Counted from the first letter of the stretch, positions 35,971-57,300 are shown. The stretch: DNA of 64,000 bases from an uncultured Candidatus Binatia bacterium (GCA_965261895.1 OZ253480.1:3947665-4011664), one strand, 5' to 3'. The notes: a model not told the origin generated them from the letters alone. Translations and numbers: made by a program.

Positions 35971-36065
35971 CAAAAGATCGCCAAATCTCCCCAATATTGG
36001 GGTGGCTAGCCAGCTCGCGACGCGTTTAAACTACCATGGCGCGTGAGCGCCGCCGGGAGGAGACC
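35971..36065 (+). promoter_or_regulatory. Conserved ~100-bp upstream element, copy a (palindrome TCCCCAATATTGGGG + box GCGCGTGAGCGCCGCCGGGAG), upstream of giant adhesin 1
   Basis: It shares GTCAAA..CGCCAAATCTCCCCAATATTGGGGA...(35-37 nt)...TCAGCGCCGCCGGGAG with the copies at 45586, 46595, 52741 and 54131. Confidence 0.6.
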
Positions 36066-36449
36066 CGGCGAGAACCGTTGCGCGGTCTGTTCGACCCCAC
36101 GGGGCATCGGCTTTCATTCGGATTATTGCAGCTACGGGAGGCTAGGGATGACCCTTTTTCGCTTACCTCGGACAACACGTTTTCTGCGCCGGATACCTGT
36201 GTCAAAGGCAACGGATCCAAGCTGGCGGGAGACCGGATCTCATTCGTGAAGCCAAGGCGACCCCAAGATCCTACAGCGTCAGGCGACGGGCGTTGTCGAC
36301 CGCTTGCCAACGTGTCTGTGGGCTCGTCGGATCGCGTTCCAATTTCCTTCCTCCCCAGGCGCCATCCCGTTTTCAGACCAGCGATGCCCTGCCGACGCAT
36401 GTGCATCGTTCTCATCTCTCTTACGCGAATTCACCGGGACCCTTCGACC

Positions 36450-42400: not shown

Positions 42401-44240
42401 ATCCATTACCGTGCCGGGGCCGAATCACGACCTCACGGTGGCGGACGCCGAGGTCGAGGAAGCCCCGGGCGCCGAGTTGGCGTTTGTCGTGACGCTGAGC
42501 GGGACAGCGCCCTACCGGGTCAAGGTGGATTACAGGACGGCGGACGGCACGGCGACGGCCGGCGAGGACTATACGGCGGTGGAAGGTACGCTCATCTTCG
42601 AGCGCGGCGAGACGTCGAAGACCGTTTCGGTGCTGGTGCTCGACGACGCTCATGACGACGACGGCGAAACCCTGACGCTCTCCTTGAGCAATCCGCTGCG
42701 CGCGATGATCGTCGACGGCGAGGCCGTGGGAACGATCCGCAACAACGATCCGATGCCTCGGGCCTGGCTGGCGCGCTTCGGGCGCACGGTCGCCGACCAG
42801 GTTCTGGCGGCGGTGGAGGGCCGGCTGAAGGCCGCGCGGGTGCCCGGCGTCGAGGCACAGCTTGCCGGGCAGCGGATCGCCGGCCCCGCGGCGCCGGACA
42901 CCGAGAAGGCCCATGAGGCGGAAGCCGAGGCCCGTCTCCTGGCGCTGTCGGACTGGCTGCGTGGCGCTGCCTGCCCCGACGAGTCTGAGCGCCAGGGTGA
43001 ATGCGCATTGGGCGGACAAGCGCGTTTCGACTCGCGGAAGCTGACGGGGCGGGACTTCCTGACGGGCTCTTCCTTCACACTGACGGGCGGAACGCGAGAG
43101 GGCGGTGTCGGTGCGTTGTGGGCCCAGGGAACGGTCGGACGATTCGAAGGGCGCGAGGGCGCCCTCTCTCTGGACGGCGAGGTGTTGAGCGGCATGCTGG
43201 GCGCGGACTGGACGCGCGGGCGTGGGACCGCGGGGTTCGTGCTTGCTCATTCCCGCGGCGACGGCGACTACCGCTCTGAATCGGGCGGGGGCGAGGTTTC
43301 CTCGACGCTGACCGGGATCTATCCTTACGGGCGCTACGCGGTGAACGAGCGCCTGTCCATGTGGGGCATCGTCGGCTACGGCGCTGGCGAGCTTGGGCTC
43401 ACGCCGGAGGGGAGCTCGCGGCTCGAGGCCGATATCGATCTCGCGATGGCGGCCGCGGGCGCCAGGAGTACCGTTCTCGATGGCGGCGACAACGGTCCGA
43501 CGGCGGCGTTGACGGCGGACGCGCTGATCGTGCGCACGAAGGCCGACGGGGCTCCGGGTCCGGCGGCCTCGAAGGCCGAGGTGACGCGTCTGCGTTTGGG
43601 GCTTGAAGGATCGTGGCCGTTTCCGCTGGAGGGCGGGGCACTGGTGACGCCAAGCGTCGAGATCGGGCTGCGCCAGGACGGCGGCGATGCCGAAGCCGGC
43701 TTCGGTGCCGACATCGGCGCCGACATCGGCGCCGGACTCGCTTGGGAGGACCCGCAGCGTGGCCTCAAGGCGGAGGTCCGGGGTCGTGGCTTGCTGACCC
43801 ATGAGGACGCGAATTTCCGGGAGCGCGGCTTCGCGGCCTCGTTCGCCTGGAACCCGACACCGGGCTCCAAGCTAGGCCCGTCCCTCACCCTGCGCCAGAG
43901 CGTGGGCGCTTCAGCGACCGGCGGTATGGACGCACTGCTCTCCCGCGGGACGATGGCGGGCGTCGCTACGAATGACAATCGCGAGAATGTTGCTCGCCGT
44001 CTCGAGGTGAAGCTGGGCTACGGGCTGCCAGTGGCCGGAGACCGGTTCATCGGCACGCCGGAGATCGGGGTCGGGTTCTCCGACACGGGCCGCGAATACA
44101 GCCTGGGCTGGGGCCTCGGACTTGCGCGGCGCGACCGGGGTTCCCTCGATCTCTCGCTTGAAGGGACGCGGCACGAGAGCGCGAACGGTGATCGCGGGCC
44201 GGAACACGGAATCGGTCTCAGGCTAAGGGCGCGCTGGTAA
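36450..44240 (+). CDS. Giant secreted/surface adhesin (~2600 aa): signal peptide, cadherin-like beta-sandwich repeats, FN3, Calx-beta domains, C-terminal autotransporter-like beta-barrel
   Basis: Signal peptide MHHLVVPCTVRCLAIMLFSAFVALLATPAYAQ. Repeats of TDATLS.L...TYTITVTR type (cadherin-like). Two near-identical FN3 units. Calx-beta (VTVDYATGDGTATAGADYTAANGTLTFAPGETTK). A ~480-aa C-terminal domain is shared with the 54588-59642 paralogue and ends ...LRLRARW. Confidence 0.7.
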   Translation: MHHLVVPCTVRCLAIMLFSAFVALLATPAYAQTEVPSNWPLKPPGLNVGDEFRLVFMGKVSRNADSTDVAVYDAHVQGRIAGIGHAEIKAYSSHFKVLGSTSTVNARMHTGTTGTGGVPIYWLNGPKVADNYADFYDGTWDDKDGATLEDGTSLSSGRKDQFICTGTNDDGTTASQPLGAATCAGTKINISGNTLSGATGASSAASRYLVLSGVFRVGNFTATIPTVESVRVTSDPGSDGEYVKDDAIKVTVTFSEAVAVTGTPKIKLRLSEEATPKRPGYVAAESTATALVFSYTVKATDYSHDGVIIPRNGIVLSGGATIKNQAGTVDADLDHAKKDSLSAHKVHVRPLVTGVTVASTPAANGIYRTGETIQIDLTFDKAVAVFTDFGTPEVWFVMDGSNPARREAAYTTTVGDHVVRFDYAVQAADLDDDGILFMNNAIVWNDGAIIRKAHGDVDDLDELKTLRVDENGGSTSTYPQTGHRVNAAVSTDATLSDLDLEDSNGAAIELTPSTFASTTTSYTASVAYAVDEITIVPTVIEIYATVAYLDASDTALTDADANKNGFQTPLAAGANTIKVKVTADDDFTTLTYTITVTRGAASTDATLSSLAFTDAANGNTISLTPGGNRTYTTSVISSVDEITVLPTVNESNATVAYLNASDTALTDADVAKDDFQVVLAVGANTIKVKVTAEDGDTIETYTVVVTRAALVPGQVTGVEVTPGTGRLKVDWNAVTNADGYKVQWKSGTETFTNAAANSREATVTSGSTTSHTITGLTNGTAYDVQVIATRTNAADETPSAPASGTPGAAPGQVTGVEVTPGTGRLKVDWDAVTNADGYKVQWKSGAETFADAAANSREATVTSGSTTRHTITGLTNGTAYDVQVIATRTNADDGTPSAPATDTPSQTVRITGVAFTNVPSNNVYNLGDTIEVSITFNAAVEVTGTPKVQMYFVDKHKFYEYANYDAAFSTDTVLVFKRLVTGDDDNESTVRVIPDGLKLNGGTIRIKGTTVNADIAHAGTQTDPDINTRWLEGIAVTSAPAVPETVTGNPVYGPGEKIQFKVTFKNAVDVDQTDGALKLKFRSGSATATYAADYESGTGTKDLVFAWTVPANMPDDGAGLVVPTNVHGHGHGFDTSHGLVLNGGTIKSSGGIAVNIRHGQHDTDSRVDTTAPVLAAGADGATVDGTALVLTFQNPDDGNSADHLDEASAPADFAVTVAGSARTVSSVNVNGATVTLTLASPAGHAQAVTLGYTPGTSRIRDRWGNEAVQIAGRSVRNDSPEPSLSIEPVTVHESDGTATFTVTLSVPSAEQVTVDYATGDGTATAGADYTAANGTLTFAPGETTKPISVTIADDTVDEDGETFSVTLSNAVNASIGQAAAAGTITDDDQTALFLSGQVTELMATATVNKVTLTWTAPSGTILGYRIEASYDGGTVWAEVEDNTNGTSTAYAHGSGLMAGETRDYRVSAITGDGAGPPSVAAAANASDTVNGLTATGVSIQDTPDGMATIDLCWKPSGVAVSELKDFAIRERNVHPSYPAEWSDQHWSPSGKSRAADCEAGSIGFRVSGRIAPNIRYAFQIRARYGMRWALSNDADAVSVDAALDLRADVLTGNSSLSGDTDVPATVCPAYDDPATPEADAGSFIVNIGFSTRPAVMLNYEAVTGFVLDNDVTLENATAELIDRPYGAQLGYRVRITPTTWGQPVAVSVPAGVVTHPASSVRNQASNVFRRNTSASTDCDTGSDITVYPPAVRRTAILDDDDRSGMWSTGERVRATLEFTESVTVTTDNGIPTVSLSIDGKTVQASYAEGTGGDTLAFEHVVTAEQSPFNSASLVANSLSLNGGAIASLDGPAATLAHPGAVKQKKLGTGPKKPATEPKLTANWVKFPPGHSGDGRKFTVRVKFSDPVTINVRYFRDYALSVTGGVVDKLWRVKGSDGEPRKDLWAIRVMPASQQPLSLSLAAIQDCSQHGAICTADGTPLSNAASITVPGPNHDLTVADAEVEEAPGAELAFVVTLSGTAPYRVKVDYRTADGTATAGEDYTAVEGTLIFERGETSKTVSVLVLDDAHDDDGETLTLSLSNPLRAMIVDGEAVGTIRNNDPMPRAWLARFGRTVADQVLAAVEGRLKAARVPGVEAQLAGQRIAGPAAPDTEKAHEAEAEARLLALSDWLRGAACPDESERQGECALGGQARFDSRKLTGRDFLTGSSFTLTGGTREGGVGALWAQGTVGRFEGREGALSLDGEVLSGMLGADWTRGRGTAGFVLAHSRGDGDYRSESGGGEVSSTLTGIYPYGRYAVNERLSMWGIVGYGAGELGLTPEGSSRLEADIDLAMAAAGARSTVLDGGDNGPTAALTADALIVRTKADGAPGPAASKAEVTRLRLGLEGSWPFPLEGGALVTPSVEIGLRQDGGDAEAGFGADIGADIGAGLAWEDPQRGLKAEVRGRGLLTHEDANFRERGFAASFAWNPTPGSKLGPSLTLRQSVGASATGGMDALLSRGTMAGVATNDNRENVARRLEVKLGYGLPVAGDRFIGTPEIGVGFSDTGREYSLGWGLGLARRDRGSLDLSLEGTRHESANGDRGPEHGIGLRLRARW
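38585..39177 (+). repeat. Two near-identical tandem ~297-bp units (FN3 domains) inside adhesin 1
   Basis: GQVTGVEVTPGTGRLKVDW(N/D)AVTNADGYKVQWKSG(T/A)ETF...GLTNGTAYDVQVIATRTNA is repeated in direct succession. Confidence 0.7.
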
Positions 44241-44296: not shown

Positions 44297-45580
44297 GTGT
44301 TCAAGGTATTGGGGATGATGTCGTTTGGCGAGGCGATGCGGTTTGCGGGCGCGGGCGCGCTCCTGCTGCGCGAGCGGTTGCAGAGCGGAGTGAGCTACAA
44401 CCCGCTGTCGTCCCGCACGGCCCAGGATCCCTATCCCGTCTATGCGGCCCTGCGTAACCGGGATCCGGTTCATCGCAGCCGCTTACTTGGGGCTTGGCTG
44501 TTCACCCGCCACGCCGATGTCGATGCCATCCTGCGCGACCACCGGCACTTCAGCAACGATCCGCGCACGGGCACGCTGTCGTCCCGGCAGCACGCCATGC
44601 TGTCCCCGCCGGACGAGTTCACCATGCTGTTTCTCGACCCGCCGGACCACACGCGGCTCAGATCGCTGGTGACCAAGGCGTTTACCCAGAAGGCGGTCAA
44701 CGACCTGGAACCGCGCATCCGCAGCATTCTCGGATCGTTGCTGGACGACATCGAGGACCCGGCCGAATTCGATCTGATGCAGGCGGTGGCCCGGCCCTTG
44801 CCGGTCATCGTGATCGCCGAAATGCTGGGCGTGCCGCCGGAGGACAGGGACGTGTTCAGGATCTGGTCGGCCCAGCGCGCGCGTATGCTGGAGCCGACCA
44901 TCGGCCCGGACGAGCGCGAGGCTGGCGAGGCGGCCTCCAGGGCGTTCGACGCCTATTTCCGGCCAATCATTGCGGTGCGGCGGGCGGAGCCGAGGGACGA
45001 TATCGTCAGCGCGCTGGCGCGGGTGGAGGACGACGGCGGCCACCTGACCGAACGTGAGACACTGAACATGCTGCGCCTGCTCCTGATCGCCGGCAACGAG
45101 ACCACCGTCAACCTCATCGGCAACGGCATGCTGGCTTTGCTTCGGCATCCCGAACAGCTTCAGCGGCTGAGGAACGACCCGAGCCTGATCCCGGCGGCGG
45201 TGGAGGAACTGCTGCGTTTCGACTCTCCGATACAGGCGGATTTCCGGCGCGTGCTCGCGGATTGCGAGGTGAACGGGCTTGCACTGCGCAAACGCGACAA
45301 CGTCGTCCTGTTTCTCGGGGCGGCCAACCGGGATCCGGACGTCTTCGAGGATCCCGACCGCCTCGATGTGGAACGCAGCCAGGGCTCCCACCTGTCGTTC
45401 GGACGCGGCATCCACTATTGTCTCGGCGCTCCGCTTGCGCGCCTGGAAGGCCGGATCGTTCTCGATATGTTGCTTGAGCGGTTCTCGCAGATAGACTTGC
45501 TCGCGGAGCGTCCGAGGTTCCGCAAGGGTATCGTGCTCCGGGGCCTTGAATCGCTGACGGTGCGGTGCGTCAGGGCCTGA
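44297..45580 (+). CDS. Cytochrome P450
   Basis: Heme-binding loop FGRGIHYCLGAPLARLE. The ExxR motif is ELLRFDS. Confidence 0.8.
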   Translation: MFKVLGMMSFGEAMRFAGAGALLLRERLQSGVSYNPLSSRTAQDPYPVYAALRNRDPVHRSRLLGAWLFTRHADVDAILRDHRHFSNDPRTGTLSSRQHAMLSPPDEFTMLFLDPPDHTRLRSLVTKAFTQKAVNDLEPRIRSILGSLLDDIEDPAEFDLMQAVARPLPVIVIAEMLGVPPEDRDVFRIWSAQRARMLEPTIGPDEREAGEAASRAFDAYFRPIIAVRRAEPRDDIVSALARVEDDGGHLTERETLNMLRLLLIAGNETTVNLIGNGMLALLRHPEQLQRLRNDPSLIPAAVEELLRFDSPIQADFRRVLADCEVNGLALRKRDNVVLFLGAANRDPDVFEDPDRLDVERSQGSHLSFGRGIHYCLGAPLARLEGRIVLDMLLERFSQIDLLAERPRFRKGIVLRGLESLTVRCVRA

Positions 45581-45585
45581 GATAC

Positions 45586-45700
45586 TGTCAAAAAACCGCC
45601 AGATTTCCCCAATGTTGGGGACGCGCTCTACGCGTAACTCGCATAAACTTCCATTCATCGCGCATCAGCGCCGCCGGGAGCAGGCTTTGACGTCTGTTCC
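45586..45700 (+). promoter_or_regulatory. Conserved upstream element, copy b
   Basis: GTCAAAAAACCGCCAGATTTCCCCAATGTTGGGGACGCGC...CGCGCATCAGCGCCGCCGGGAGCAGGC. Confidence 0.6.
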
Positions 45701-45774
45701 GTAACGAAGTGAGCAACGAGATGCGAGAAACATCGGCCGGCCTGCGGGCCTTTTGAAAAAGGGAGGGTCGAACA

Positions 45775-46302
45775 ATGAGGAGCGCCTTAACGAGATGGGC
45801 TTTCGCTGCAGCCTTCGGTCTCATCGTGAGCGCCGTTGGAATTTCGATCACGACCGAACAAGCCTGGGCCGACTCGTGCTCGGGGACGACTATCGGTCAC
45901 GGGAGCGCCGACTGCCTGACTGTGGTCTTCCAAAGGGGCAGGCAGGGTGTGGCGCTGACCAATGAGTGTTCGGGCCTGGGTGTCGTCACGGCGGAACTCA
46001 AGGTCATCAACTATGGCTCCGAGGGTACAGTCACCAGCCTTCAGGCACTGAGCAGTTCCGAAACTCTAGTAGAAATAATCGCGAATGACGAGGACGCGCG
46101 CTATACGAACGCACGCTGCTGCACGACCTCCGGTATTTGCGACAACACCGACTGCGACACGACCAACGGCGTGATTGACGATGATAGCCACAAGACGCAT
46201 TGCCGCCATATCGATGACACGACCGGCGCGGTAATCAGGGCGGGCACCGAGATAACGGACGGGGTGGTGACCTACACACCGCCATCTAACACCGGGTTCT
46301 AA
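45775..46302 (+). CDS. Small Cys-rich secreted protein (signal peptide), paralogue 1
   Basis: 175 aa. Signal peptide MRSALTRWAFAAAFGLIVSAVGISITTEQAWA. Ten Cys. RBS GGGAGGG. Confidence 0.6.
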   Translation: MRSALTRWAFAAAFGLIVSAVGISITTEQAWADSCSGTTIGHGSADCLTVVFQRGRQGVALTNECSGLGVVTAELKVINYGSEGTVTSLQALSSSETLVEIIANDEDARYTNARCCTTSGICDNTDCDTTNGVIDDDSHKTHCRHIDDTTGAVIRAGTEITDGVVTYTPPSNTGF

Positions 46303-46594
46303 TCCGCAGGCGAATGGAAGCCATCGGCAAAGCATTGCGGCTGTTCAGCGTGTGAACGGCGGCGCAGAGGAGCCGCGGCAATTGACGTCATGGAGCGCCT
46401 CCTCTCGGGCGTGACCCAGGGCGGGATTTGTATGGTCCGGTTCCGTACGGCGATACGTTGGGCGTCGGCCAGTTCTTGGTCATCACGCCTGACGCCTCGC
46501 TCTCAAGGTCACCCGCGCCGAGCAACTGATCGAGCGGATGGAATCTCAACCGGCGCGGCCCTCGTCTGCCCTGCATGCAGTCCCTGAGACACGG

Positions 46595-46700
46595 TCAAAG
46601 AAAAACGCCAGATCTCCCCAATGTTGGGGACGCGCTCTACGCGCGACTCGCCTAATCTATCAACCATCGCGCATCAGCGTCGCCGGGAGCAGGCTTTGAC
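46595..46700 (+). promoter_or_regulatory. Conserved upstream element, copy c
   Basis: GTCAAAGAAAAACGCCAGATCTCCCCAATGTTGGGGACGCGC...CGCGCATCAGCGTCGCCGGGAGCAGGC. Confidence 0.6.
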
Positions 46701-46784
46701 GTCTGTTCCGTAACGAAGCGCGCAACGGGTATGCGAGGAACATCGGCCGGCCTGCGGGCCTTTGGAAAAACGGAGGGTCGAACA

Positions 46785-47318
46785 ATGAAGAGCGCGTTAA
46801 CGAGATGGGCTTTCGGTGCAGCCTTCGGTTTCATCGTGAGCGCCGTTGGAATTTCGATTACGACCGAACAAGCCTGGGCCGACTCGTGCACGGGGACGAC
46901 TATCCGTCATGGGAGCGCCGACTGCCTGACCGCGGCCTTCTCAAACAACAGGCAGACTTTGTCGCTGACGAGTGAATGTTCGGGCCTGGGTGTCGTCACA
47001 GCCGAAGTCAAAGTAATCGACCTTGGCACCGAGGGACCAGTCATCTATCTTTGGACGCTGAACAACTCCACGCCTTTCGTAACCCATATCTCGAATAATA
47101 GCGACGCGACCTATACGAACGCACGCTGCTGCCCGACCTCCGGCATCTGTGACATCACGGACTGCGACACGACCAACGGCGTGATTAACGATTCGAGCCA
47201 CAAGACGCATTGCAGCTATATCGACAATACGACCGGTGTAATCACGTCAGGTAACGAGATAACGAACGGACAGGTGATCCATACACCGCCCACACCGCCA
47301 TCTGACACCGGGTCCTAA
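46785..47318 (+). CDS. Small Cys-rich secreted protein, paralogue 2 (tandem duplicate)
   Basis: 177 aa, ~65% identical to paralogue 1 with the same signal peptide and Cys spacing. The 3' flank is also duplicated (46303-46420 vs 47319-47430). Confidence 0.6.
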   Translation: MKSALTRWAFGAAFGFIVSAVGISITTEQAWADSCTGTTIRHGSADCLTAAFSNNRQTLSLTSECSGLGVVTAEVKVIDLGTEGPVIYLWTLNNSTPFVTHISNNSDATYTNARCCPTSGICDITDCDTTNGVINDSSHKTHCSYIDNTTGVITSGNEITNGQVIHTPPTPPSDTGS

Positions 47319-47433
47319 TCCGCAGGCGAATGGAAGCCATCGATAAAGCATTGCGGCTGTTTGGCGTGCGAGAGGGACGCCGGCAATTGACGCCACGGAG
47401 CGCTCCCTCTCGGGTGTGACCTAGAGGCGGAAT

Positions 47434-48930
47434 ATGCATGATCCGGAGTGCCGTGCGGAGATCCGGTCGGCGTCGGCCGGTGCATGTCCAAGTGGCCGCG
47501 AGGCGGTGCGGCGGGGGTTGTGGCGCGTCGTCCTCATCCCCTTGCTGCTTGCGATGCCGCTGCTCCTGGCGCCTTGCCCGTCGACGTTCGGGCAGGCAAG
47601 GGACGCCACCGGGGACCAGCACCTGGTGTTGACGGTGGATGCTGCGATCCGGCTGGCGCTACGGAACAACCGAGGCCTGATCGACGCCCGGCTCGCCCGA
47701 ACGTTGCAGGAGTTCGCGCTCGACGTGGCCGGGGACCGCTACCGGCCCACGGTGACGATCGGACCGTCCACGCAGGCGCAAAAGGCGCAGGACTGGAAGG
47801 CGGACGTCGACGCCGAGACCGGGCTCAGGATTCGCACCGGCGGCCGGATCACGTTGCGATGGTCGAAACCCATCGCAGGGCAGGACGACACTTCGGGCAC
47901 CGTCACCCTGGGCTTTTCACAGCCGTTGCTGAAGGGCTTCGGGGCTTCGGTGGATACGGCGCCGGTCCGGTCGGCTCGGCTGACCGACGAGGTCAACATG
48001 CTCGCGTTCCGCGAGGCGATCGCCGGTGTGGTGACCTCGACGATCCGCGCTTGGCGGGACCTCGTCCGGGCTCGGCGGCAGCTCGATATAGGCGAGTCCT
48101 CGCTGGAGCGGGCGCGTAAGCAACTCGAGATCAACCGGACGCTGATCGAGGCGGGCCAGATGGCGGCGCGGGAGATTCTGCAGAGCGAGGCCAACGTCGC
48201 CGACCGGGAGCTTACCCTGGTTCAGTCGCGCAACCGCGTGACCGTAGCCAATTTCCAATTGATCGACATTCTGGACGTCGACAGCGCCACGGAGGTCCGT
48301 CCGCTGGCGATGCCGGTCGCCCGGCAGCCGGATCTTTCGCTGGAAGAGGCCATCGCCGTGGCTCTGCGCCACGCGCCCGCCCATGCGCTGGCTCTGCTCG
48401 ACGTGGAGATCGCCGCGATCGATCTGGAGGTGGCGGAGAACAAGACGCTCTGGGACCTCACCCTGGATGCCGAGGCGTCGCGCGGCACCGGCGGGGGCGG
48501 TGAGGCGACCGACTATGCGGCGGGCCTGCGGCTGACCATTCCGCTGTGGGACCGCTTGCCCGAGCTCGGGCTCATGAGCGCCAGAGCCGGTGTCCAGCGG
48601 GCGGAGCGCGGCCTTGCCGAGGTCCGTCAGGCGACGGACATCGCGGTGCGCCGGGCGGTCCACGACGTGGAGGTGGGTTTGCGACGGATCGCGCTCGCCC
48701 GTGACGCGCGCGCGCTTGCCGAAGAGAAGCTCGAGATCGAGCGGAGCAAGCTGCAGCAGGGTCTGTCGTCCACCTTCCAGCTCAGCCGCTTCGAAGAGGA
48801 TCTGGTGCGCGCACAGAACGCCGAGGTGGATGCGCTCATCGACCATGAGAACGCGTTGACGACACTCGACCGGACGCTCGGCACGACGCTGGAGACCTGG
48901 GATATCGGTGTCGAAGAGGTCGGGCGATGA
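47434..48930 (+). CDS. TolC-family outer membrane efflux/secretion protein
   Basis: 498 aa with an N-terminal hydrophobic signal. OMF repeat helices LALRNNRGLIDARLARTLQEF and LE(I/V)NR. The true start may be internal. Confidence 0.7.
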   Translation: MHDPECRAEIRSASAGACPSGREAVRRGLWRVVLIPLLLAMPLLLAPCPSTFGQARDATGDQHLVLTVDAAIRLALRNNRGLIDARLARTLQEFALDVAGDRYRPTVTIGPSTQAQKAQDWKADVDAETGLRIRTGGRITLRWSKPIAGQDDTSGTVTLGFSQPLLKGFGASVDTAPVRSARLTDEVNMLAFREAIAGVVTSTIRAWRDLVRARRQLDIGESSLERARKQLEINRTLIEAGQMAAREILQSEANVADRELTLVQSRNRVTVANFQLIDILDVDSATEVRPLAMPVARQPDLSLEEAIAVALRHAPAHALALLDVEIAAIDLEVAENKTLWDLTLDAEASRGTGGGGEATDYAAGLRLTIPLWDRLPELGLMSARAGVQRAERGLAEVRQATDIAVRRAVHDVEVGLRRIALARDARALAEEKLEIERSKLQQGLSSTFQLSRFEEDLVRAQNAEVDALIDHENALTTLDRTLGTTLETWDIGVEEVGR

Positions 48931-50696
48931 CGGAAGAGCGCGCGGACATCCACGGGCGCGTACTCGACCATCTGCTGGACGGGGTGATGGTGGTCGAGCG
49001 GGGCGGCACGATCACGGTGTTCAACCCGGCGGCGGCGCGCATCCTCGGTGTCTCGCCCGAGGAGGTGGCAGGCAGGACCTTCACCGAGCTCTTCATCGCG
49101 CGAGAGGGGTTCGAGGAGTTCTCGGACCTCCTCCTGGACGCCGTCCAGGGCGAGGGCGAGGGCGGCCGGCAGGTGGTGACGCTGCATACCGGCGATGCGG
49201 CGCGGACGCTTTCGGTGGCGATCTCCTACATCGGATCGAGCGGGGACGACGCCGGCGAGAGGGTGGCGCTGATCGCCGTGTTCAGCGACATCACCGAGTT
49301 GCGCGAGCTGCGCGAGACCGAGCTTCGCATGGCGAAGGCGGTGGAGGCGCAGCATGCAGAGCTTCAAACCGCGTACCGGCAGATCGAGCAGCGGAACGAT
49401 TCGCTGGCCGCGATGCTGAAGAAGGTCCAGGTGGCGCGGGTGCTGGCGACGGTGGTGGTGATCGGGGTTTTCCTGGGGGCAGGCGTCTATGTCTGGCGGC
49501 CCCTCGACCTGTTTGGCCCCGTCTTTGGGCCCTCGGTGGTGTCTCACGCCGATGCCGCGAAGGGGTTGCGGACGATCGTGGTGGAGCCGCGGCAGACGCG
49601 GGAGACGATTGCGCTGGTGGGCAAGATCACGCCGTGGCGGACGGTGACGGTGACCAGCCCCATCGAGAGCCGCGTCTCGGCAGTGCACTTCCAGTATGGC
49701 CAGAAGGTGGGAAAGGGCGATCTTCTGGTGGAATTGGATACCTCCGAGTTGGTGCGGAAGCACCGTCGGGCGCAGGTGGCGTATATCAATGCGTTGGAGG
49801 CTTTCGAGACCGTCAGGGACTGGAAGAACGGCCCCGAAATGATAGTCGCGCGGCGGGCGTTCGCGCGGGCTCGGATTGCACTTGAGAGCCAGGAGACCCG
49901 GCTGAAGCGGACCACTTTCCTGCTGGAGCAGGGCCTCGTTCCCGCATCCCAGCATGAGGAAGCGGAGCGTCAGCACCGGCGCCAGCTTCTGGATTTCGAG
50001 GCCGCCCGCCAGGACCTTGAAGCAGCCCGGGCCAGGGGTGGCGAGGAGGCGGTGGACAAGGCGGCGCTGGAGTTGAGCAGTGCCAAGGAAGAGATGCAGG
50101 AGCTTGCGAAGAGCGCGGGCCAGGGCCGTGTTCTCGCGCCGGTGTCGGGGGTGGTGCTGGCGTCCTCCGGGGCCGGCGCAAAGGTTCTCGCGCCGGGACG
50201 GTCAGTGGAAAAGGGCGAGGCGATACTGAAGATTGGGGACTTCAGCCGCATTGCCGCCACCGCGATGGTCGACGAGGTCGACGTGGTGCGGCTCGCGGTC
50301 GGCCAGACGGTGTCGGTGACCGGCAACGCGTTCCGCGATCTGCGGATGCGGGGGACCGTGACCCACGTTTCGTCGCAGCCCCTCCCGAGGGCGCGGGGCG
50401 CGGCCCGGTTCGAGGTCAAAGTGACGCTGGACCCGCTGGACGCGCATCAGAAAAGGCGGTTGCGGACGGGAATGTCGTGCGTGCTGGAGATCGTCATCTA
50501 CAACAAGGACGCGGCGCTGATGGTCCCCATCGAAGCGGTGGAGCGAAGCGGCCGGTCTCACCGTTTGCGTGTGATCCATGGCGAGACCCGCATCGTTCAG
50601 CACCGCGAGGTGGAGGTCGGCCCCACCACCCTGGATTCGGTCGAGATCACGTCCGGGCTGAAGCCGGGTGACGAGATCGTCGTCCCGACGGAATGA
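48927..50696 (+). CDS. Membrane fusion protein (HlyD/MacA-like periplasmic adaptor) with an N-terminal cytoplasmic PAS domain
   Basis: Residues 1-120 are PAS-like (LLDGVMVVERGGTITVFNPAAARILGVSPEEVAGRTFTELF). A TM helix follows (VARVLATVVVIGVFLGAGVYVW), then biotinyl-lipoyl, beta-barrel and MP domains of an MFP. Confidence 0.7.
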   Translation: MTEERADIHGRVLDHLLDGVMVVERGGTITVFNPAAARILGVSPEEVAGRTFTELFIAREGFEEFSDLLLDAVQGEGEGGRQVVTLHTGDAARTLSVAISYIGSSGDDAGERVALIAVFSDITELRELRETELRMAKAVEAQHAELQTAYRQIEQRNDSLAAMLKKVQVARVLATVVVIGVFLGAGVYVWRPLDLFGPVFGPSVVSHADAAKGLRTIVVEPRQTRETIALVGKITPWRTVTVTSPIESRVSAVHFQYGQKVGKGDLLVELDTSELVRKHRRAQVAYINALEAFETVRDWKNGPEMIVARRAFARARIALESQETRLKRTTFLLEQGLVPASQHEEAERQHRRQLLDFEAARQDLEAARARGGEEAVDKAALELSSAKEEMQELAKSAGQGRVLAPVSGVVLASSGAGAKVLAPGRSVEKGEAILKIGDFSRIAATAMVDEVDVVRLAVGQTVSVTGNAFRDLRMRGTVTHVSSQPLPRARGAARFEVKVTLDPLDAHQKRRLRTGMSCVLEIVIYNKDAALMVPIEAVERSGRSHRLRVIHGETRIVQHREVEVGPTTLDSVEITSGLKPGDEIVVPTE

Positions 50697-50708
50697 GCGG
50701 CCGGGGTC

Positions 50709-51389
<681 letters not shown>

Positions 51390-51403
51390 CGCGGGCAGGT
51401 GCG

Positions 51404-52618
51404 ATGAGGGGCCTACGCCCGATTCTGGCAGCCAACCTTCGCGAGGCTGTACGCAGTCTCCACGGGGCTCGGTTGCGGACAGTGCTGGGGCTGATCGGCG
51501 TCATGCTGGGCATCTCGTCGGTGATCGCCATGATCTCGTTGGGGGAGATCGCGAAGGCCGAGTCGCGAAAACGGTTCGAGGCCCTCGGCACCGACATTCT
51601 TGCCATCACCAAGTCCGACACCTCGGCCGCCGCCCGTAGGCGGGGAGCGGTCATTGGCCTCGAGGATGCGCTTGCGCTGGCAGACGCGGTCCCGACCGTG
51701 TCGGAAACCGGGCCCCAGACCGAGGCGCAGGGTTCTTTTGCGTATGGCGGGAAATCCATGGGTCGGGGATTGACGCAGGGCGTATCGGCCGCGTTCGCGC
51801 GCGTGAACAGGTTACAGGTCGCCGAAGGGCGGTTCCTGTCCGACATGGACGCGGAACGCTATTTTGCGGTGGTGGGCGCCGACCTGGCCTCGGCCATGCG
51901 CCGCGGCGGGGCGCGAGAAGTCGTAGGCGAGGTCCTGGAGATCGACGAGCGGCTGTTCACCGTCGTGGGCGTGCTGGCGGATACGCCCGAGACCTACGCG
52001 TTGCCCTTCCAGTTGCAAGCGAACCATTCGGTGTTCGTGCCGATTACCACCGTGCGGCGCATCGACCCGAGCACCGAGATTGGACTGATCGTCGCACGCG
52101 CGACAGCCGGTGTTCACCACGCGGATGCGGCACGCGATGTCCAAGCCTATTTCAGCGGTCGCACAAGGGGCCTCGCTCTCAGGGTCACCAGCGCCGAGCA
52201 ACTGATCGAGCGGATGGAGTCTCAACTGGGACTGATGACGCTTCTTCTGGGTGCCGTCGGCAGTATCAGCCTTATCGTCGGCGGCATCGGAGTGATGAAC
52301 ATCATGCTGATTTCGGTGGCCGAGCGGCGGCGCGAGATCGGCATCCGCCGGGCGCTCGGCGCGACGCGCGGGGACATCCAAGGTCAGTTCTTGATCGAGG
52401 CTGTGATCCTGACGCTCTGTGGGGGGCTGGCGGGCATCGTGGTCGGCTGCGGGGCCACCTACGGTGTCTGCCGGTTCACCGGGTGGGAGTTCTTTCTATT
52501 GCCGAGTTCTATCGCAATAGGTGTCGCCGTCTCGTCCGTGGTCGGGGTCTTCTTTGGCTTCCAGCCCGCCTATCAAGCGTCCCGTCTAGACCCCATCGTC
52601 GCCCTGCAAGGGCAATAG
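51404..52618 (+). CDS. ABC transporter permease (MacB/FtsX-type, with periplasmic domain)
   Basis: 404 aa. An N-terminal TM is followed by a ~200-aa periplasmic domain, then three C-terminal TMs characteristic of FtsX-like permeases. Confidence 0.8.
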   Translation: MRGLRPILAANLREAVRSLHGARLRTVLGLIGVMLGISSVIAMISLGEIAKAESRKRFEALGTDILAITKSDTSAAARRRGAVIGLEDALALADAVPTVSETGPQTEAQGSFAYGGKSMGRGLTQGVSAAFARVNRLQVAEGRFLSDMDAERYFAVVGADLASAMRRGGAREVVGEVLEIDERLFTVVGVLADTPETYALPFQLQANHSVFVPITTVRRIDPSTEIGLIVARATAGVHHADAARDVQAYFSGRTRGLALRVTSAEQLIERMESQLGLMTLLLGAVGSISLIVGGIGVMNIMLISVAERRREIGIRRALGATRGDIQGQFLIEAVILTLCGGLAGIVVGCGATYGVCRFTGWEFFLLPSSIAIGVAVSSVVGVFFGFQPAYQASRLDPIVALQGQ

Positions 52619-52740
52619 CGTGGATGCGGCGGACGATCCGGAGCAAAGTCTCCATCGTTCAGTGTCGATCATGCGATTCGCGATGGACCCTCACACCCAG
52701 TTCACGCATCGTCGATGGTACATGATATCGTTTGAGACCT

Positions 52741-52830
52741 GTCAAACCGTCAAATCTCCCCAATATTGGGGAGGCATGGAAGCGCCTGAGCGTTTACACT
52801 TCAAACATGCGTCAGCGCCGCCGGGAGTGG
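52741..52830 (+). promoter_or_regulatory. Conserved upstream element, copy d (perfect 18-bp palindrome CTCCCCAATATTGGGGAG at 52756-52773) upstream of the LuxR-family regulator
   Basis: GTCAAACCGTCAAATCTCCCCAATATTGGGGAGGC...GCGTCAGCGCCGCCGGGAG. Confidence 0.6.
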
Positions 52831-52948
52831 GTGCCGGCGACATCGGTGTGTAAGGTTGCAGCGGAGAATATGCGGAACAAAGAAGGGTTCTTGCCACCCA
52901 GCGGCTGGGAATTGCGCCGGCCGAGCGTCCGCAAACGAAGGCGCGGTC

Positions 52949-54100
52949 ATGAGTGAACGGGAGGCGTTCGACCGCATTCTGGCTTCGTTGCACGAGGTGG
53001 CGCTCGACCCTGGCCACTGGTCGACCGCCACCGCGCTGATCGACCAAGCCCTCCGCACGCACGGCAGCAGCATGGTGTTCGGCGACGGGCACTCCGAAGA
53101 GGACATCCGAATCTACTTTACGTGGGCCTTTTTCCGTGGGCAACGGCACCGGGAATTGGAGCGCGAGTACTACGAGGTCTACTACCCCCTGGACGAACGG
53201 GCCCCCCGCATACGGTATGCCCCCGACAGCCGGTTGTACCACGTTACCGACCTCTACACCGAGAAGGAGCTGAAGACCTCCACGACATACAACGAGCTGT
53301 TGGCCCGCGCCCACGCCCAGAACGGCATCCATGTGCGCCTGGACGGGCCCAATGGCTCGCGCATCGTCTGGGTCGTCAACGACCCGGTCGACGGGGACGG
53401 CTGGTCGTCCGCCCAGCTCGGCTCGATCCGGCGTCTCCTGCCCCATATCCGTCAGACCGTGCGCGTCCAGCAGGCGCTGGCCGGGACCGGTGCTCTGCGC
53501 GCGTCCCTCGCGAAGCTGCTTGACGCCACCGGGTTGGGCATCGTCCATCTCGACGGGCGTGGGCGGATCGTGGCGGCGAACGACCGCGCCCGGGATTTGC
53601 TGCGGACCGGCGACGGTCTGTTCGACGAGGACGGTTTCCTCTACGCCCGCACGCGGGAGGACAATGCCGAACTCCAAGAACTGTTGACGCGAGCGCTGCC
53701 GCCGTTCGGGGCACAGGGCGCGGGCGGCTCGACGATGGTGAGGCGCTCGTCCGGCCGGTCGCCGCTGGTGCTGCACGTCAACCCGGTGGGCCGGCAGGAG
53801 ACGGTCTGGCCGGTCTGGCCGGTCGCGGCGCTCGTGCTGGTCGTCGACCCGGCAAACCAAACCCGCATCGATCCGGCCGTGGCTGCGGCGGCTCTCGGCC
53901 TCACGGGGATGGAGAGCCGGGTGGCGGTGCTGTTGGCCGACGGCATGAACGTCCGCGAGGTCGCCGCGGCAACGGGCCGCGGGGAAAGCACGATCCGCTC
54001 GCATGTGAAGCACATGTTCGACAAGCACGGTCTGTCGCGGCAGGCGGAGCTGGTGCGGCTTGTGCAGTCGTTGGCCGGCGCTCCGGAGTCCCGACGCTAA
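52949..54100 (+). CDS. LuxR/GerE-family transcriptional regulator (C-terminal HTH; ~300-aa N-terminal domain uncharacterised)
   Basis: C-terminal GerE HTH (LTGMESRVAVLLADGMNVREVAAATGRGESTIRSHVKHMFDKHGLSRQAELV). The N-terminal start is MSEREAFDRIL. Confidence 0.7.
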   Translation: MSEREAFDRILASLHEVALDPGHWSTATALIDQALRTHGSSMVFGDGHSEEDIRIYFTWAFFRGQRHRELEREYYEVYYPLDERAPRIRYAPDSRLYHVTDLYTEKELKTSTTYNELLARAHAQNGIHVRLDGPNGSRIVWVVNDPVDGDGWSSAQLGSIRRLLPHIRQTVRVQQALAGTGALRASLAKLLDATGLGIVHLDGRGRIVAANDRARDLLRTGDGLFDEDGFLYARTREDNAELQELLTRALPPFGAQGAGGSTMVRRSSGRSPLVLHVNPVGRQETVWPVWPVAALVLVVDPANQTRIDPAVAAAALGLTGMESRVAVLLADGMNVREVAAATGRGESTIRSHVKHMFDKHGLSRQAELVRLVQSLAGAPESRR

Positions 54101-54130
54101 AGCCGGAAGCAGCCGCTGGCCGGCGCTGAC

Positions 54131-54262
54131 CTCGTCTGCCTTGCCTTCATTCCTGAGACACAGTCAAAAACCGCCAAATCTCCCCAATCTCGGGGACGCG
54201 CGCCACGCGCGACTCGCGTAATCTTTCATCCATCGCGCATCAGCGCCGCCCGGAGCAGACCC
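54131..54262 (+). promoter_or_regulatory. Conserved upstream element, copy e (imperfect palindrome TCCCCAATCTCGGGGA) upstream of giant adhesin 2
   Basis: CAGTCAAAAACCGCCAAATCTCCCCAATCTCGGGGACGCGC...CGCGCATCAGCGCCGCCCGGAGCAGACCCGGCGAG. This is also similar to copy a. Confidence 0.6.
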
Positions 54263-54362
54263 GGCGAGGTCTGTGAGGGAGGGTGTGTGGCGATGGGATC
54301 GGGTCGTGACTGAAGAAGGTTTTCTGCACCGGATAGCGGGTCCACCGAATTGGAAAACATCG

Positions 54363-57300
54363 ATGAGCACCTTGAGCACCTTCGACGCCTGGCACCGCTG
54401 GCTGACCGGCCTCCTTCTCGTGGCGGGTCTCGCCGTCCTCGCCGCGACGCCCTCCCATGCCGATCCCGCGGATGGCGACCTGCGCCTCAGAGGAGGTGCC
54501 ACGCACAACGAAGGACGGTTGGAGATCTTCTAAGACAACGAGTGGGGGACCGTCTGCGACGACTTCTTCGGGAGAAGGGACGCGAAGGTGGCCTGCAAGC
54601 AGATGGGCTATACGGGAGCGGAAGCGTACCTCACGGACGTCGCGGTAGCACCGGGCAGGCGGTTTTGGCTCGACGACGTCAATTGCGTGGGGAACGAAGC
54701 CAAACTGACCGAGTGCTTCTACAACAGCAACGTCAGAAACATCAGCAGCAGAACCAGCCCCCAATGGGGAATCGCCAACTGCATACCGTCGGAACAGGTG
54801 GGCGTGCGCTGCACGGCCTCGACCTCGGACGAGAGCGTGGAGCTCAACGAGAGCCACCTCACGGTGCAGGAGCAGGGCGGCGGGTCGAGATACACGGTCC
54901 GTCTGGGCAAGGCGCCGACCGGGAACGTGACGGTGGCAATCTCCGGGCAGAGCTCGACGGTGACGGTCGACTCCACGCCCCTGACCTTCACGACGGGAAA
55001 CTGGAGCACGCCGCAGAGGGTGACCCTGACCGCCTTCGACGACTCGAACCGGACCGACGACTCGTTCACCCTCACCCACACCGCGTCCGGGGGCGGGTAC
55101 GGCAGTGTGACCGAGAGCCTCAGCGTGACGGTTGAGGACGACGACGGTCCGGTGCAGGCCCATATCGATTACGGTGGCATTGTCAGTCTGACCGAGGGCG
55201 GTAGCCGCACCTACAGCATCTGGCTGGATAGCGCTCCGACCGAACAGGTGACGGTGGCGGTGACCGCGCCGTCGAAGGTGAGCGCGACCCCGGCGAGCCT
55301 GACCTTCACGACGGGGAACTGGAGCACGCCGCAGACGGTCACGCTCGAAGCGCAGGACGACAACGACACCTCCGACGAGACGCAGTATGTGACGCACAGG
55401 GCCACCAAAGGCGACTACACCACGACCTTGAGCAGAGTTCAGGTGGAGATTACGGACGACGACGACGGTGAGGACCAGATCGGCTCGCGGCCGTCCGGGG
55501 CGTTGTGGTGGGCGGCGCTGACGGCGCGGCGGGAGACCGGCGGGGCGACCGGGCACATCGACTACACGAGCCCGCATGCGGACACCGGCAAGCTCTCGAA
55601 CGACAGCTTCACCTACGGCGGGGTGACGCGCGCGATCGACGGGCTGTTCGTCGACCGCAACGGGCACTTCCAGATCTGGGTGGATTCGGGGAACGGCTCG
55701 GTGCTGCCGAACGGTTCCGTGCTGCATGTAGGGAGCGAGTCGCTGACGCTCGGCAGCGCGACGCGGCAGTCGTTCAGGACCATGTACAACGACGGCAGGA
55801 CGCCGATCATGCGCGAGCACGCCTACTGGTGGCAGTCGGGCTCGCACGGTGTGAGCCTGTCGGACCGGCAGGTGGTGGCGGTGTGGCTGGAGGTGCCCGC
55901 CGGGAGTGAGCTGCCCGGGGTGCCGAGGAGTGTCAACGCGCAGGCGCGGGACGGCAAGGCGAGCCTGGAGTGGGGTGCGCCGCCGGAGGTCCCGTCGAAA
56001 CCTGTCACGTCCTACGAGTACCAGCAGGAAGGCACGGAGACGTGGAACTCCACGGGCGGGACGGCGACGACGAAGGAGGTGACGGGCCTCGCCAACGGCG
56101 CGAGCTACACCTTCCGGGTGCGTGCCGTGAACGCGGCGGGCAAGGGCGCGGCGTCGGCGCCGACGCCGGCGGTGACGCCGGCGGCACCAGGGCTGACGGC
56201 GTCGTTCGTGTCGGTTCCGGAGGCGCACGACGGGAGCAGTGCGTTCACGCTGCGGCTTGAGTTCAGCGAGGATGTGGCCGGGCGTTTTCGGCGGATGCGG
56301 AGCGACGTGTTCGAGGTGACGGGGGGCGCGGTGACGGACCTGCGGCGTGTGGACCGGCGCCGGGACTTGTGGACGGTCACGGTGACGCCGTCGTCGGAGG
56401 ACGAGGTGACGGTGGCGGTGCCGGCGGGCCGGGCGTGCGATGTTTCGGGGGCGGTGTGTACGGCCGACGGCGAGCAGTTGTCGAGCCGTGTGGAGGCGAC
56501 GGTTCCCGGCCCTCTGCCGACGGTGTCGGTGAGCGCGGGAACGAGCCCGGTGACGGAGGGCACGGCGGCAGCCTACACGCTCACGCGCACGGGCGACACG
56601 GCGGCAGCGCTGACGGTGACGGTGAGCGTGAGCGAGGACGGCGCGGTACTCTTGGGGACGGCGCCGACGGAGGCGATCTTTGCCGCGGGCTCGGCGACGG
56701 TCGAACTCACGGTCGCAACGGAGGACGACGCGGTTGCCGGGGACGGGAGCGTGGTGACGGTCGCGCTTGTGGCCGGCACGGGCTACGCGCTCGATGCGGA
56801 CGCCTCCGCGGCAACGGTGACGGTGGCGGACGACGACGCGGTGACGGAGAACACGGCGCCGACGGGCCTGCCGACGATTGCGGGTACGGTGCGGGCCGGT
56901 GAGACGCTGACGGCGTCGGCCACGGGCATTGCGGATGCGGACGGGGTCGCCGATGCGGTTTTCGCCTGGCAATGGATCGCGAACGACGGGACGGCGGACG
57001 CCGATATCGCGGATGCGACGGGGACGAGCTACACGCTGACGGCGGCCGAGGTTGGCAAGACGGTCAAGGTGCGCGTCACCTTCACCGACGACGGCGGGAC
57101 GGCGGAGACGTTGGTCGGCGCGGCGACGGCGGCCGTGGCGGCGCTTCCGGCGATCTCGGTGGCGGCGGTTGCGTCGCCGGTGACGGAGGGGGCCGCGGCG
57201 GCGTTCACGCTCACCCGCACGGGCGACACGGCGGCGGCGCTGACGGTGTCGGTGTCGGTCACGCAGGCGGGCGCGGTGCTGTCGGGCACGCCGGGCTCGA

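Follow-up and report, generated by a model that had tools for sequence, protein, structure and literature searches.

A PAS domain at the cytoplasmic end of the membrane-anchored adaptor of a MacB-type tripartite exporter in an uncultured Candidatus Binatia bacterium and its relatives

The stretch of DNA analysed here, 64,000 nucleotides from an uncultured Candidatus Binatia bacterium (GCA_965261895.1, OZ253480.1:3947665-4011664; hereafter the window, with positions counted from its first letter), carries genes for a tripartite exporter in the order outer-membrane factor (OMF), membrane fusion protein (MFP), ATP-binding cassette (ABC) ATPase and MacB-type permease. The MFP, or periplasmic adaptor, begins with a PAS domain, and we refer to it as PAS-MFP. 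Read from its N-terminus, it consists of the PAS domain, a DIT motif, a 45-residue heptad helix, one transmembrane (TM) helix, a flexible tether and a four-domain MacA-like adaptor (Table 1). The initial annotation of the window had proposed both the operon (TolC, PAS-MFP, ABC ATPase, FtsX-type permease) and the fusion of a PAS domain to a MacA-like MFP, ahead of its one TM helix. Both proposals held, the first through Pfam and NCBIfam matches of the neighboring genes, and the second through Pfam and NCBIfam scores above their cut-offs, AlphaFold2 (AF2) models and hydropathy. What changed was the standing of the protein, which had been taken for a singular oddity and turned out, in the searches described below, to be one member of a large, conserved family whose pumps likely serve a dedicated protein cargo.

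Five lines of support place the start codon upstream of the PAS region, as first annotated, with no need for a downstream start. The ATG of the PAS-MFP gene overlaps the TGA of the preceding OMF gene (ATGA) and follows a GAGG at a distance of about 10 nt; the in-frame G+C content at third codon positions (GC3) of the PAS-coding region, 0.88-0.92, is at the level of the remaining gene; the N-terminus 'MT..DIH..VL' is common to the homologues; independent gene calls on public contigs arrive at the same 589-aa product; and an MFP start abutting the OMF end recurs in many related loci. The exact PAS-MFP of the window has no database record, and a protein 98% identical to it (P0001) stood in for the gene-call comparison. 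That the PAS region might be an artefact, whether of a wrong start codon, a spurious fusion or a pseudogene, is hardly credible: several in-frame GTG and ATG codons do lie downstream, but the PAS frame is conserved as protein, with the shared N-terminus, in more than 110 relatives, and we rejected this explanation on that conservation together with the overlap found across loci, the GC3 of about 0.9 and the independent gene calls.

Hydropathy revealed one strongly hydrophobic segment in the protein, at residues ~167-190, with Lys and Arg on its N-terminal side. PAS-MFP has no N-terminal signal peptide and no lipobox, its anchor being the single hydrophobic helix 167-190. Because Lys and Arg precede the TM helix, a signal peptide is lacking and the adaptor body must be periplasmic, the first ~166 residues are predicted to be cytoplasmic. 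For structural comparison, we modelled the full-length monomer with AF2 on an alignment of 66 family members (mean predicted local distance difference test score, pLDDT, 82.8) and residues 1-215 in a second model.

Table 1. Features of the PAS-MFP locus, in window coordinates
Feature	Position	Strand	Basis and details
Palindrome TCCCCAATGTTGGGGA, 5' of Cys-rich gene A	45606..45621		further sites at 35988-36003, 46615-46630, 52757-52772, 54181-54196
Cys-rich protein A, candidate cargo	45775..46302	+	175 aa, Sec-type signal peptide, 8 Cys; hidden Markov model (HMM) E = 0.004
Cys-rich protein B, candidate cargo	46785..47318	+	177 aa from MKSALTRW start; longest open reading frame (ORF) from 46731; HMM E = 1.7e-8
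OMF, TolC-like	47434..48930	+	PF02321 OEP, two stretches, 1.3e-37; colinear in about 30 loci
PAS-MFP gene	48927..50696	+	589 aa; ORF call, Pfam, NCBIfam, AF2, homologues
PAS domain, residues 11-121	48957..49289	+	PAS_9, PAS_4, PAS, TIGR00229 above cut-off; AF2; Foldseek
DIT motif D121-I122-T123, end of PAS	49287..49295	+	D121 invariant, I122 92%, T123 86% (66 sequences)
Signalling helix, residues 122-166, predicted cytoplasmic	49290..49424	+	heptad pattern; most conserved segment
Single TM helix, residues 167-190	49425..49496	+	hydropathy maximum; conserved G180, F182, G184, G186
Periplasmic tether, variable, residues 191-215	49497..49571	+	pLDDT <50; identity 0.36; length varies
Periplasmic MFP body, residues 216-589	49572..50693	+	membrane-proximal, beta-barrel and lipoyl domains plus alpha-hairpin (helices 273-397)
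ABC ATPase, separate polypeptide	50709..51389	+	ABC_tran 4.3e-33; resembles LolD, MacB nucleotide-binding domain, DevA and DarD ATPases
MacB-type (type VII ABC) permease	51404..52618	+	MacB_PCD 2.9e-29 and FtsX 2.2e-20
LuxR/GerE-type regulator (probable)	52856..54100	+	GerE 1e-4, under Pfam cut-off; weak PAS_8 match

Profile support for the PAS assignment, which had been set beforehand as its test, was obtained from both collections, all scores exceeding the curated cut-offs. The Pfam models PAS_9, PAS_4 and PAS scored 37.6, 37.3 and 35.7 bits (cut-offs 27, 23.1 and 22.6), with E-values of about 3e-9 to 1e-8, and the NCBIfam model TIGR00229 'sensory_box' scored 48.7 bits (cut-off 22.9). The peptide VMVVERGGTITVFNPAAARILGVSPEEVAGRTF, residues 20-52 of the 589-aa PAS-MFP, lies within this region. 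AF2 placed a PAS fold at residues 8-121 with pLDDT 80-90, built from five strands (19-24, 28-32, 81-88, 91-103, 112-121) and helices at 34-40, 44-47, 52-57 and 63-73, and the model of residues 1-215 alone returned an identical PAS domain followed by a helix at 123-193. The closest structures to this N-terminal module in Foldseek (E 5e-9 to 1e-6) were WalK/VicK, the short LOV protein PpSB1-LOV, YF1, FixL, BvgS and DosP, which are dimeric cytoplasmic PAS sensors with a C-terminal coiled coil. By sequence, the relatives of the domain in the PDB were WalK, ThkA, the cytoplasmic PAS of CitA (PASc) and FixL, with only the generic N-terminal half aligning.

The connection from this domain to the membrane is more conserved than either of the parts it joins. 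Mean pairwise identity over the 66 members was 0.72 in the linker (residues 122-166), compared with 0.60 in the TM helix, 0.57 in the PAS domain, 0.54 in the adaptor body and 0.36 in the tether, and the spacing from D121 to F182 was 61 residues in 64 of the 66 sequences, unlike the PAS loops and the periplasmic tether, which vary in length. The hydrophobic moment of the linker, calculated from averaged hydrophobicity, peaked at a period of 3.5 residues, from which we take the linker to be a heptad coiled coil. In the two AF2 models a single unbroken helix runs from the PAS domain into the membrane (123-185 or 123-193), followed in the full-length model by a disordered tether at 186-212. Two nearly invariant polar residues, H143 and N157, lie on the hydrophobic stripe of the linker, the predicted heptad core, which suggests a metastable signalling coiled coil rather than one of maximal stability. 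Within the TM helix, G180, F182, G184 and G186 have conservation values of 0.86-0.98, with F182 invariant; from this pattern we suspect that the helix packs specifically and is not just a passive anchor. In BvgS-family kinases a DIT motif is likewise followed by a coiled coil of invariant length and then by the output, and changes of linker length in BvgS-type proteins alter activity (PMC4810494). By analogy, the PAS domain appears to be joined to the adaptor in the same manner as a sensor-kinase PAS domain is joined to its output.

The initial annotation had named a ligand, redox state or light as possible inputs to the PAS domain; of these, light sensing of the LOV type, and likewise sensing through a His-ligated haem, are not supported by the residues present. 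LOV domains carry the motifs GXNCRFLQ and GIQxDIT. Across the 66 sequences, the PAS core contains no conserved Cys, His or Trp; the two invariant Phe of the domain, F52 and F119, occupy what we take from these motifs to be the positions of the adduct Cys and the flipping Gln; and no haem-ligating His is found in the F-alpha helix (residues 63-73). Short LOV proteins, FixL and DosP do appear among the Foldseek neighbors, but similarity at this level is generic to PAS folds, and we consider it very improbable that the domain senses light through a LOV-type flavin or oxygen through haem, both readings having been rejected on residue conservation despite the fold matches. For the same reasons, a LOV flavin-Cys photocycle and FixL- or DosP-type haem sensing are unlikely as inputs. 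The input may instead be a partner protein, a small metabolite or a cofactor bound non-covalently, and the conserved polar residues on the strands and helices of the domain (E54, R59, R81, R93, S96, S100 and Y101) could form either an anionic-ligand site or a surface for a partner protein.

Two variants among the relatives bear on whether the domain regulates the exporter. One protein of 389 aa that ends at a contig edge (P0282) has a predicted cyclic-nucleotide (cNMP)-binding domain at residues 17-95 ahead of the PAS domain, after which come a helix with the sequence pattern 'FRDITE...QH..LQSAY', a TM helix and the start of an adaptor; stacked sensor domains are typical of signalling proteins. 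In the other (L030, 6920-8398), the same cassette has a 492-aa adaptor without PAS domain that keeps a cytoplasmic helix of ~55 residues resembling the family linker. The cassette of L030 being otherwise identical, the PAS domain looks like an addition to a pump that is able to exist without it. These variants point in different directions with respect to an alternative in which the PAS domain is a constitutive structural module, one that oligomerises the adaptor N-termini or docks them on the separate ATPase independently of any signal. In its favor, the PAS domain has no conserved cofactor signature and counts ligand-free transmitter PAS domains among its closest relatives by sequence; an extra cytoplasmic tether could help a pump whose ATPase is made as a polypeptide of its own, and the retention of only the helix in L030 suggests that the helix is the essential part. 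Against this stand hallmarks of signal transmission rather than of tethering, namely the canonical DIT motif and a linker strictly fixed in length and conserved beyond both flanking domains, as well as the polar H143 and N157, suggestive of a metastable coiled coil; the addition of a cNMP-binding domain in P0282 points to regulation, and the conserved polar PAS residues are consistent with a binding site. Taking both sides together, we regard a purely structural role as unlikely.

Beyond the membrane, the protein has the features of a MacA-class adaptor. Pfam identified HlyD_D23, HlyD_3 and Biotin_lipoyl_2 in the adaptor body, and TIGR01730 RND_mfp ('efflux RND transporter periplasmic adaptor subunit') scored 105 bits against a cut-off of 94.9; AF2 confidence was ~90 pLDDT over residues 214-587. 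The best PDB sequence relative of the body was MacA (4dk0, 2.6e-13), with MacA 3fpp also matching, and in the whole-protein Foldseek search MacA within MacAB-TolC was again nearest (9qgy_G 1.6e-24; also 5nik_D and 4dk0), followed by the adaptors AcrA, MexA and EmrA. Four periplasmic domains, a single N-terminal TM anchor, a MacB_PCD/FtsX permease, an ATPase and an OMF together correspond to this class. The best NCBIfam match of the permease was to residues 257-645 of MacB, while the matches of the ATPase to LolD, MacB and DarD were all under the equivalog cut-offs, and both the ATPase and the adaptor were weakly similar to the darobactin exporter proteins DarD and DarC, respectively. Scores for the equivalogs themselves fell far short of the thresholds, at 49 bits against 342 for MacA (NF008606) and 178 and 231 bits against 966 for MacB (NF007826), so that by these profiles the pump is of the same class as MacAB-TolC and not an orthologue of MacA/MacB. 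Two other assignments were rejected: an HlyD-type adaptor of type I secretion (TIGR01843, 42 bits against a cut-off of 208, with a MacB-type partner transporter), and membership of the DevB family (TIGR02971, 55.6 bits against 129). At the lipoyl-domain loop that forms the Gln-ring valve of Escherichia coli MacA and contains Q209, the QQ pair aligned to E-K beside a 4-residue gap in a phmmer alignment to 5nik_D that is unreliable in this loop.

The initial annotation had called for a search for other MFPs with N-terminal PAS domains, and that search produced a family. In a protein collection clustered at 90%, we obtained 312 matches; more than 110 of them, with identities as low as 47%, were full-length (~590 aa) and had Pfam matches to both PAS and adaptor domains. 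We also searched a library clustered at 50% exhaustively by HMM, with the N-terminal module (residues 1-215) as the only query, and obtained 178 proteins at E <= 1e-30; among the best 150 of these, about 75 were 575-635 aa long and had the module at their N-terminus, and the others were multi-PAS proteins or fragments. When eight module-bearing proteins were checked with Pfam, all eight had PAS and six had HlyD-family adaptor domains; P0259 and P0282, also among the eight, are broken or truncated gene products. Scanning one genome per species yielded 41 loci, and the order OMF, PAS-MFP, ABC ATPase and MacB-type permease was identical in about 30 of them. The bearers are uncultured Alphaproteobacteria (Rhodobacterales, Thalassobaculaceae and others), Ca. 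Binatia, Nitrospirae and Deltaproteobacteria, with two more bins labelled Chloroflexi (SB0662) and Aphanocapsa feldmannii, the latter a sponge symbiont (PMC6506613). Some genomes contain three or four paralogous cassettes (OZ253490.1, with L015, L017, L018 and L023; CBDBIS010000005.1, with L025, L031 and L032). A family of this size excludes a one-off fusion, and these searches establish PAS-MFP as a large conserved one. The cluster look-up returned no names for the homologues. Our literature search for PAS together with MFP, periplasmic adaptor protein or HlyD found no description of such a protein, which is no proof of absence since most subscription journals lay outside the search; the word 'PAS' is likewise absent from the main reviews on adaptors and tripartite pumps. 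In one related locus (L024), ~2.1 kb of inserted DNA, which we presume to be a mobile element, interrupts the PAS-MFP gene at residue 344 and leaves parts at 7001-8053 and 10215-10937.

Clustering of all ORFs from the fetched loci identified a second family that accompanies the exporter, whose proteins contain 8-24 cysteines and start with a Sec-type signal peptide. Its members share the motifs C.GSNR(V/I).H..A.CL..WWDN, C..(Y/W)G.VVAK(I/V)D and CC.D.SDLC, and their genes mostly lie immediately 5' of the OMF gene in the same orientation, often as two or three tandem copies, so that one to three Cys-rich genes form the usual lead-in to a cassette. The two copies of the window, A and B, were scored with an HMM built only from other loci (Table 1); the conserved Cys pattern of A aligns with the family, and B, which is 177 aa in public gene calls, keeps the invariant Cys columns. 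Counting ORFs of at least 60 aa, the family adjoins about 22 of 31 cassettes, and within the 64-kb window it is confined to this locus. Pfam assigned no family to these proteins, and a protein-collection search with the Cys-rich alignment, which through its word index reached mainly close relatives, returned 51 matches with no Pfam match and no names. The association also held in the reverse direction: three family members were looked up whose contigs agreed in length with none of the earlier PAS-MFP matches, and all three lay directly 5' of an OMF / PAS-MFP / ABC / MacB cassette. In multi-cassette genomes (OZ253490.1 and CBDBIS010000005.1), a Cys-rich gene stands beside most cassettes, which suggests cognate pairs of pump and cargo.

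Several further features surround the Cys-rich genes and the 3' ends of the cassettes. Genes A and B arose by a tandem duplication of ~1009 bp, the blocks 45592-46426 and 46601-47431 being 88-91% identical, and a 60-nt fragment between the two genes (46494-46553) matches a piece of the permease gene (52170-52229) at 93% identity. We read this fragment as a relic of a cassette 3' end, and the locus therefore as rearranged or duplicated. Genes for DsbA/ScsC-like thiol oxidoreductases were found 3' of the cassette in L010, L017, L021, L025 and L048. Considered together, DsbA/ScsC-like genes and genes for proteins with two STAS domains recur just 3' of the permease in several paralogous cassettes (L048 13318-14785, L017 10697-11455 and L031 11573-12295, also L010, L021, L025, L015, L016, L020 and L023), and the tandem-STAS protein might act together with the PAS head as its partner. 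A combination of an HTTM/VKGC protein (vitamin-K-dependent gamma-carboxylase-like) and a DCC1-like thiol-disulfide protein follows the cassette once (L046, 13126-14990), and DCC1-like ORFs also lie near L006, L023 and L024.

The known biochemistry of the pump class is compatible with a periplasmic protein as substrate. MacB-type pumps perform no transport over the inner membrane; by mechanotransmission they drive substrates from the periplasm out through the adaptor and TolC. E. coli MacAB-TolC exports the enterotoxin STII after its Sec export and Dsb oxidation (PMC5985334), while the Aat and Cex systems export dispersin and CexE, proteins of 10-12 kDa (PMC5985334; PMC7943197). Based on gene neighborhood, the Cys-rich proteins are the likely cargo of the pump. 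The alternative is that the exporter handles a small molecule (antibiotic, siderophore, lipid or peptide), as the classical MacAB, PvdRT and DevBCA do, with the Cys-rich proteins as co-regulated bystanders or accessory factors. Most characterised MacB-type tripartite pumps carry small molecules (PMC5985334), proteins of 150-380 aa are large for the TolC duct, about 9 of the 31 cassettes have no Cys-rich gene nearby, and the ATPase and adaptor have the weak resemblance to DarD and DarC described above. We nevertheless find this rather unlikely, given a synteny that is tight and two-way, with the Cys-rich gene co-oriented and immediately 5' of the OMF gene, and roughly one Cys-rich gene set per cassette in multi-cassette genomes; in addition, no recurrent biosynthetic genes lie beside the cassette, and genes for disulfide catalysts co-occur with it.

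The palindromic element that the initial annotation had noted on the flanking genes was confirmed at the four sites around the operon and at a fifth farther upstream (starts 45606, 46615, 52757, 54181 and 35988). This 16-bp palindrome, TCCCCAAT-N-TTGGGGA, has 10 strand-matches in the window where 0.11 are expected, and lies 5' of five genes on the + strand, namely the ORF 36036-44240, both Cys-rich genes, the LuxR/GerE-type regulator gene and the ORF 54588-59642. It sits in a shared upstream block of ~127 nt and is kept at equivalent positions in L001, L042, L043 and L047. No palindrome precedes the pump genes themselves, whose transcription may continue from Cys-rich gene B; a promoter and terminator scan of 45400-54300 found nothing exceeding the shuffled expectation. 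Judged by its placement, the palindrome looks like an operator of the adjacent LuxR-type regulator and would then define a small regulon, with the LuxR/GerE-type protein as the probable transcriptional regulator of the locus. Homologues of this regulator adjoin the cassette in L007, L019, L020 and L031, and GerE-type genes also occur in L047 and L048. The two outermost genes that carry the palindrome are giant repeat-rich ORFs of 2734 aa (36036-44240) and 1684 aa (54588-59642) flanking the locus. Their C-terminal ~450 aa are similar to each other and end in an aromatic residue; Pfam gave no match for this part when we considered autotransporters or cargo.

Compared with characterised systems, the exporter of the window is closest to MacAB-TolC in its MacB_PCD and FtsX permease, LolD/MacB-like ATPase, TolC-like OMF and TM-anchored, four-domain adaptor with a long hairpin, and a precedent for its candidate cargo is STII, a Sec-exported, Dsb-oxidised peptide that MacAB-TolC takes from the periplasm (PMC5985334). 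It differs in that the ATPase is unfused to the permease, the OMF is encoded within the operon and the putative cargo is much larger than STII. The most visible difference lies in the adaptor: MacA 'lacks a cytoplasmic domain' (PMC13328181), whereas the window adaptor has ~166 cytoplasmic residues, PAS domain and signalling helix, before the TM helix, and the literature agrees with the view of the initial annotation that MFPs normally are without such a domain. DevBCA-HgdD of Anabaena resembles the window system in its split MacB-type transporter, its adaptor and its TolC homologue, and the cytoplasmic N-terminus of DevB is required (PMC5985334); this N-terminus is a short tail with no folded sensor domain, however, and the substrate is a glycolipid. 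HlyD of the haemolysin type I secretion system is also a TM-anchored adaptor whose cytoplasmic N-terminal domain partakes in control of the pump, in HlyD by binding substrate (PMC13328181), but that domain is small and not a PAS domain, and the partner is an HlyB-type ABC transporter with six TM helices that takes an unfolded substrate from the cytoplasm. The Aat (AatPABCD) and Cex systems combine a MacB-type transporter, an adaptor and a TolC-like outer-membrane protein and are dedicated to a Sec-delivered protein encoded nearby (PMC5985334; PMC7943197). Aat, in contrast to the window system, needs the acyltransferase AatD for a glycine-acylated cargo of 10-12 kDa and has no PAS domain, and the candidate cargo in the window belongs to an unrelated, Cys-rich and larger family.

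The N-terminal module finds its counterparts in signalling proteins. BvgS, WalK/VicK, FixL and YF1 share with it the PAS fold, the DIT motif at the end of that fold and, C-terminal to it, a heptad helix whose length is strictly conserved. In sensor kinases this helix leads to a cytoplasmic output made of the dimerization and histidine phosphotransfer (DHp) and catalytic domains, whereas in PAS-MFP, which has no kinase, GGDEF or helix-turn-helix output, it leads to the TM helix and the periplasmic adaptor. A signal would therefore have to be relayed outward or, laterally, to the ABC transporter. PAS domains as such are promiscuous. Two things are new here: a folded PAS domain on the cytoplasmic end of an adaptor, with a kinase-style helix that continues straight into the TM helix, and the proximity of such adaptor genes to an unannotated family of genes for Cys-rich secreted proteins.

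Our preferred reading, to which we assign a probability of roughly 55%, is that PAS-MFP is the adaptor of a MacB-type tripartite exporter with an acquired cytoplasmic regulatory head, and that dedicated export from the periplasm to the outside is set by the input to the PAS domain. The Cys-rich proteins would cross the inner membrane through Sec and be oxidised in the periplasm, DsbA/ScsC-like genes accompanying some of the cassettes, and the pump would then expel them over the outer membrane by MacB mechanotransmission in the way of STII, dispersin and CexE. As in sensor kinases, the coiled-coil linker would probably bring the PAS domains together in pairs, and the domains would adopt a state that depends on the signal. 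This state would be passed as a rotation, piston or scissor movement of the helices along the rigid linker of fixed length into the TM helix with G180, G184 and G186, where the TM and membrane-proximal parts of the adaptor would engage the MacB-type permease differently and alter its ATPase cycle; the readiness of the adaptor to dock or open the OMF may change too. Export would in this way be controlled post-translationally, from the cytoplasmic side. PAS gating of export could operate in this way, and the idea gains footing from the conserved DIT motif, from a heptad linker of fixed length and from DevB as a precedent, in which deletion of the N-terminus blocks export and not assembly (PMC5985334). 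Control of the pump by the PAS domain is plausible because the cytoplasmic and TM part of the adaptor already controls a pump of this class in DevB.

Several observations weigh against the proposal of a PAS-controlled exporter of Cys-rich proteins. The nearest solved PAS domains by sequence include the ligand-less 'transmitter' domains of CitA (PASc) and ThkA, and the PAS domain might sense no small molecule. From the cassette in L030, the pump can apparently work without a PAS domain. Adaptors of the MacA type surround a MacB dimer as hexamers, a stoichiometry that paired coiled coils may not easily match. The ratio of nonsynonymous to synonymous substitution rates (dN/dS) in comparison with close relatives was 0.5-0.8 in the PAS domain and 0.1-0.4 elsewhere, from small counts and with an oddly low dS. 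On the side of the cargo, about 9 of the 31 cassettes have no Cys-rich gene within 7 kb, the mature candidate proteins of 150-380 residues with 8-24 Cys are much bigger than STII or the 10-kDa dispersin, and a folded Cys-rich protein may not pass the TolC duct. With regard to the substitution rates, dN/dS was below 1 throughout the gene and lowest in the linker (0.10-0.28), and we treated these segment values, which rest on few substitutions and are weak and noisy, as uninformative. In comparisons with L001 and L047, the PAS segment (48957-49289) had a dS of 0.13-0.22, about half that of the remaining gene (0.28-0.70), with similar dN; recombination, overlapping constraint or noise are possible reasons.

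Regulation of tripartite pumps is generally regarded as almost wholly transcriptional. If the proposed role of PAS-MFP is correct, export through a TolC duct would be switched directly by the internal state of the cell, with a PAS signal sent outward across the membrane. More tentatively, the system could be an inside-out signalling pump, in which the PAS domain, in response to an intracellular cue, gates assembly with the OMF or firing of the pump and which provides a dedicated route for a previously unrecognised family of disulfide-rich proteins of uncultured, at least partly sponge-associated, bacteria; this combination would represent a new sensor-gated branch of two-step protein secretion. 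The DIT motif and the fixed spacing of 61 residues to the TM glycine motif would offer a handle for engineering ligand- or light-switchable efflux or secretion. For the bacteria themselves, the Cys-rich proteins, which occur in multiple copies and beside several pumps per genome in uncultured, symbiont-type lineages, are candidates for effectors directed at a host or at competitors.

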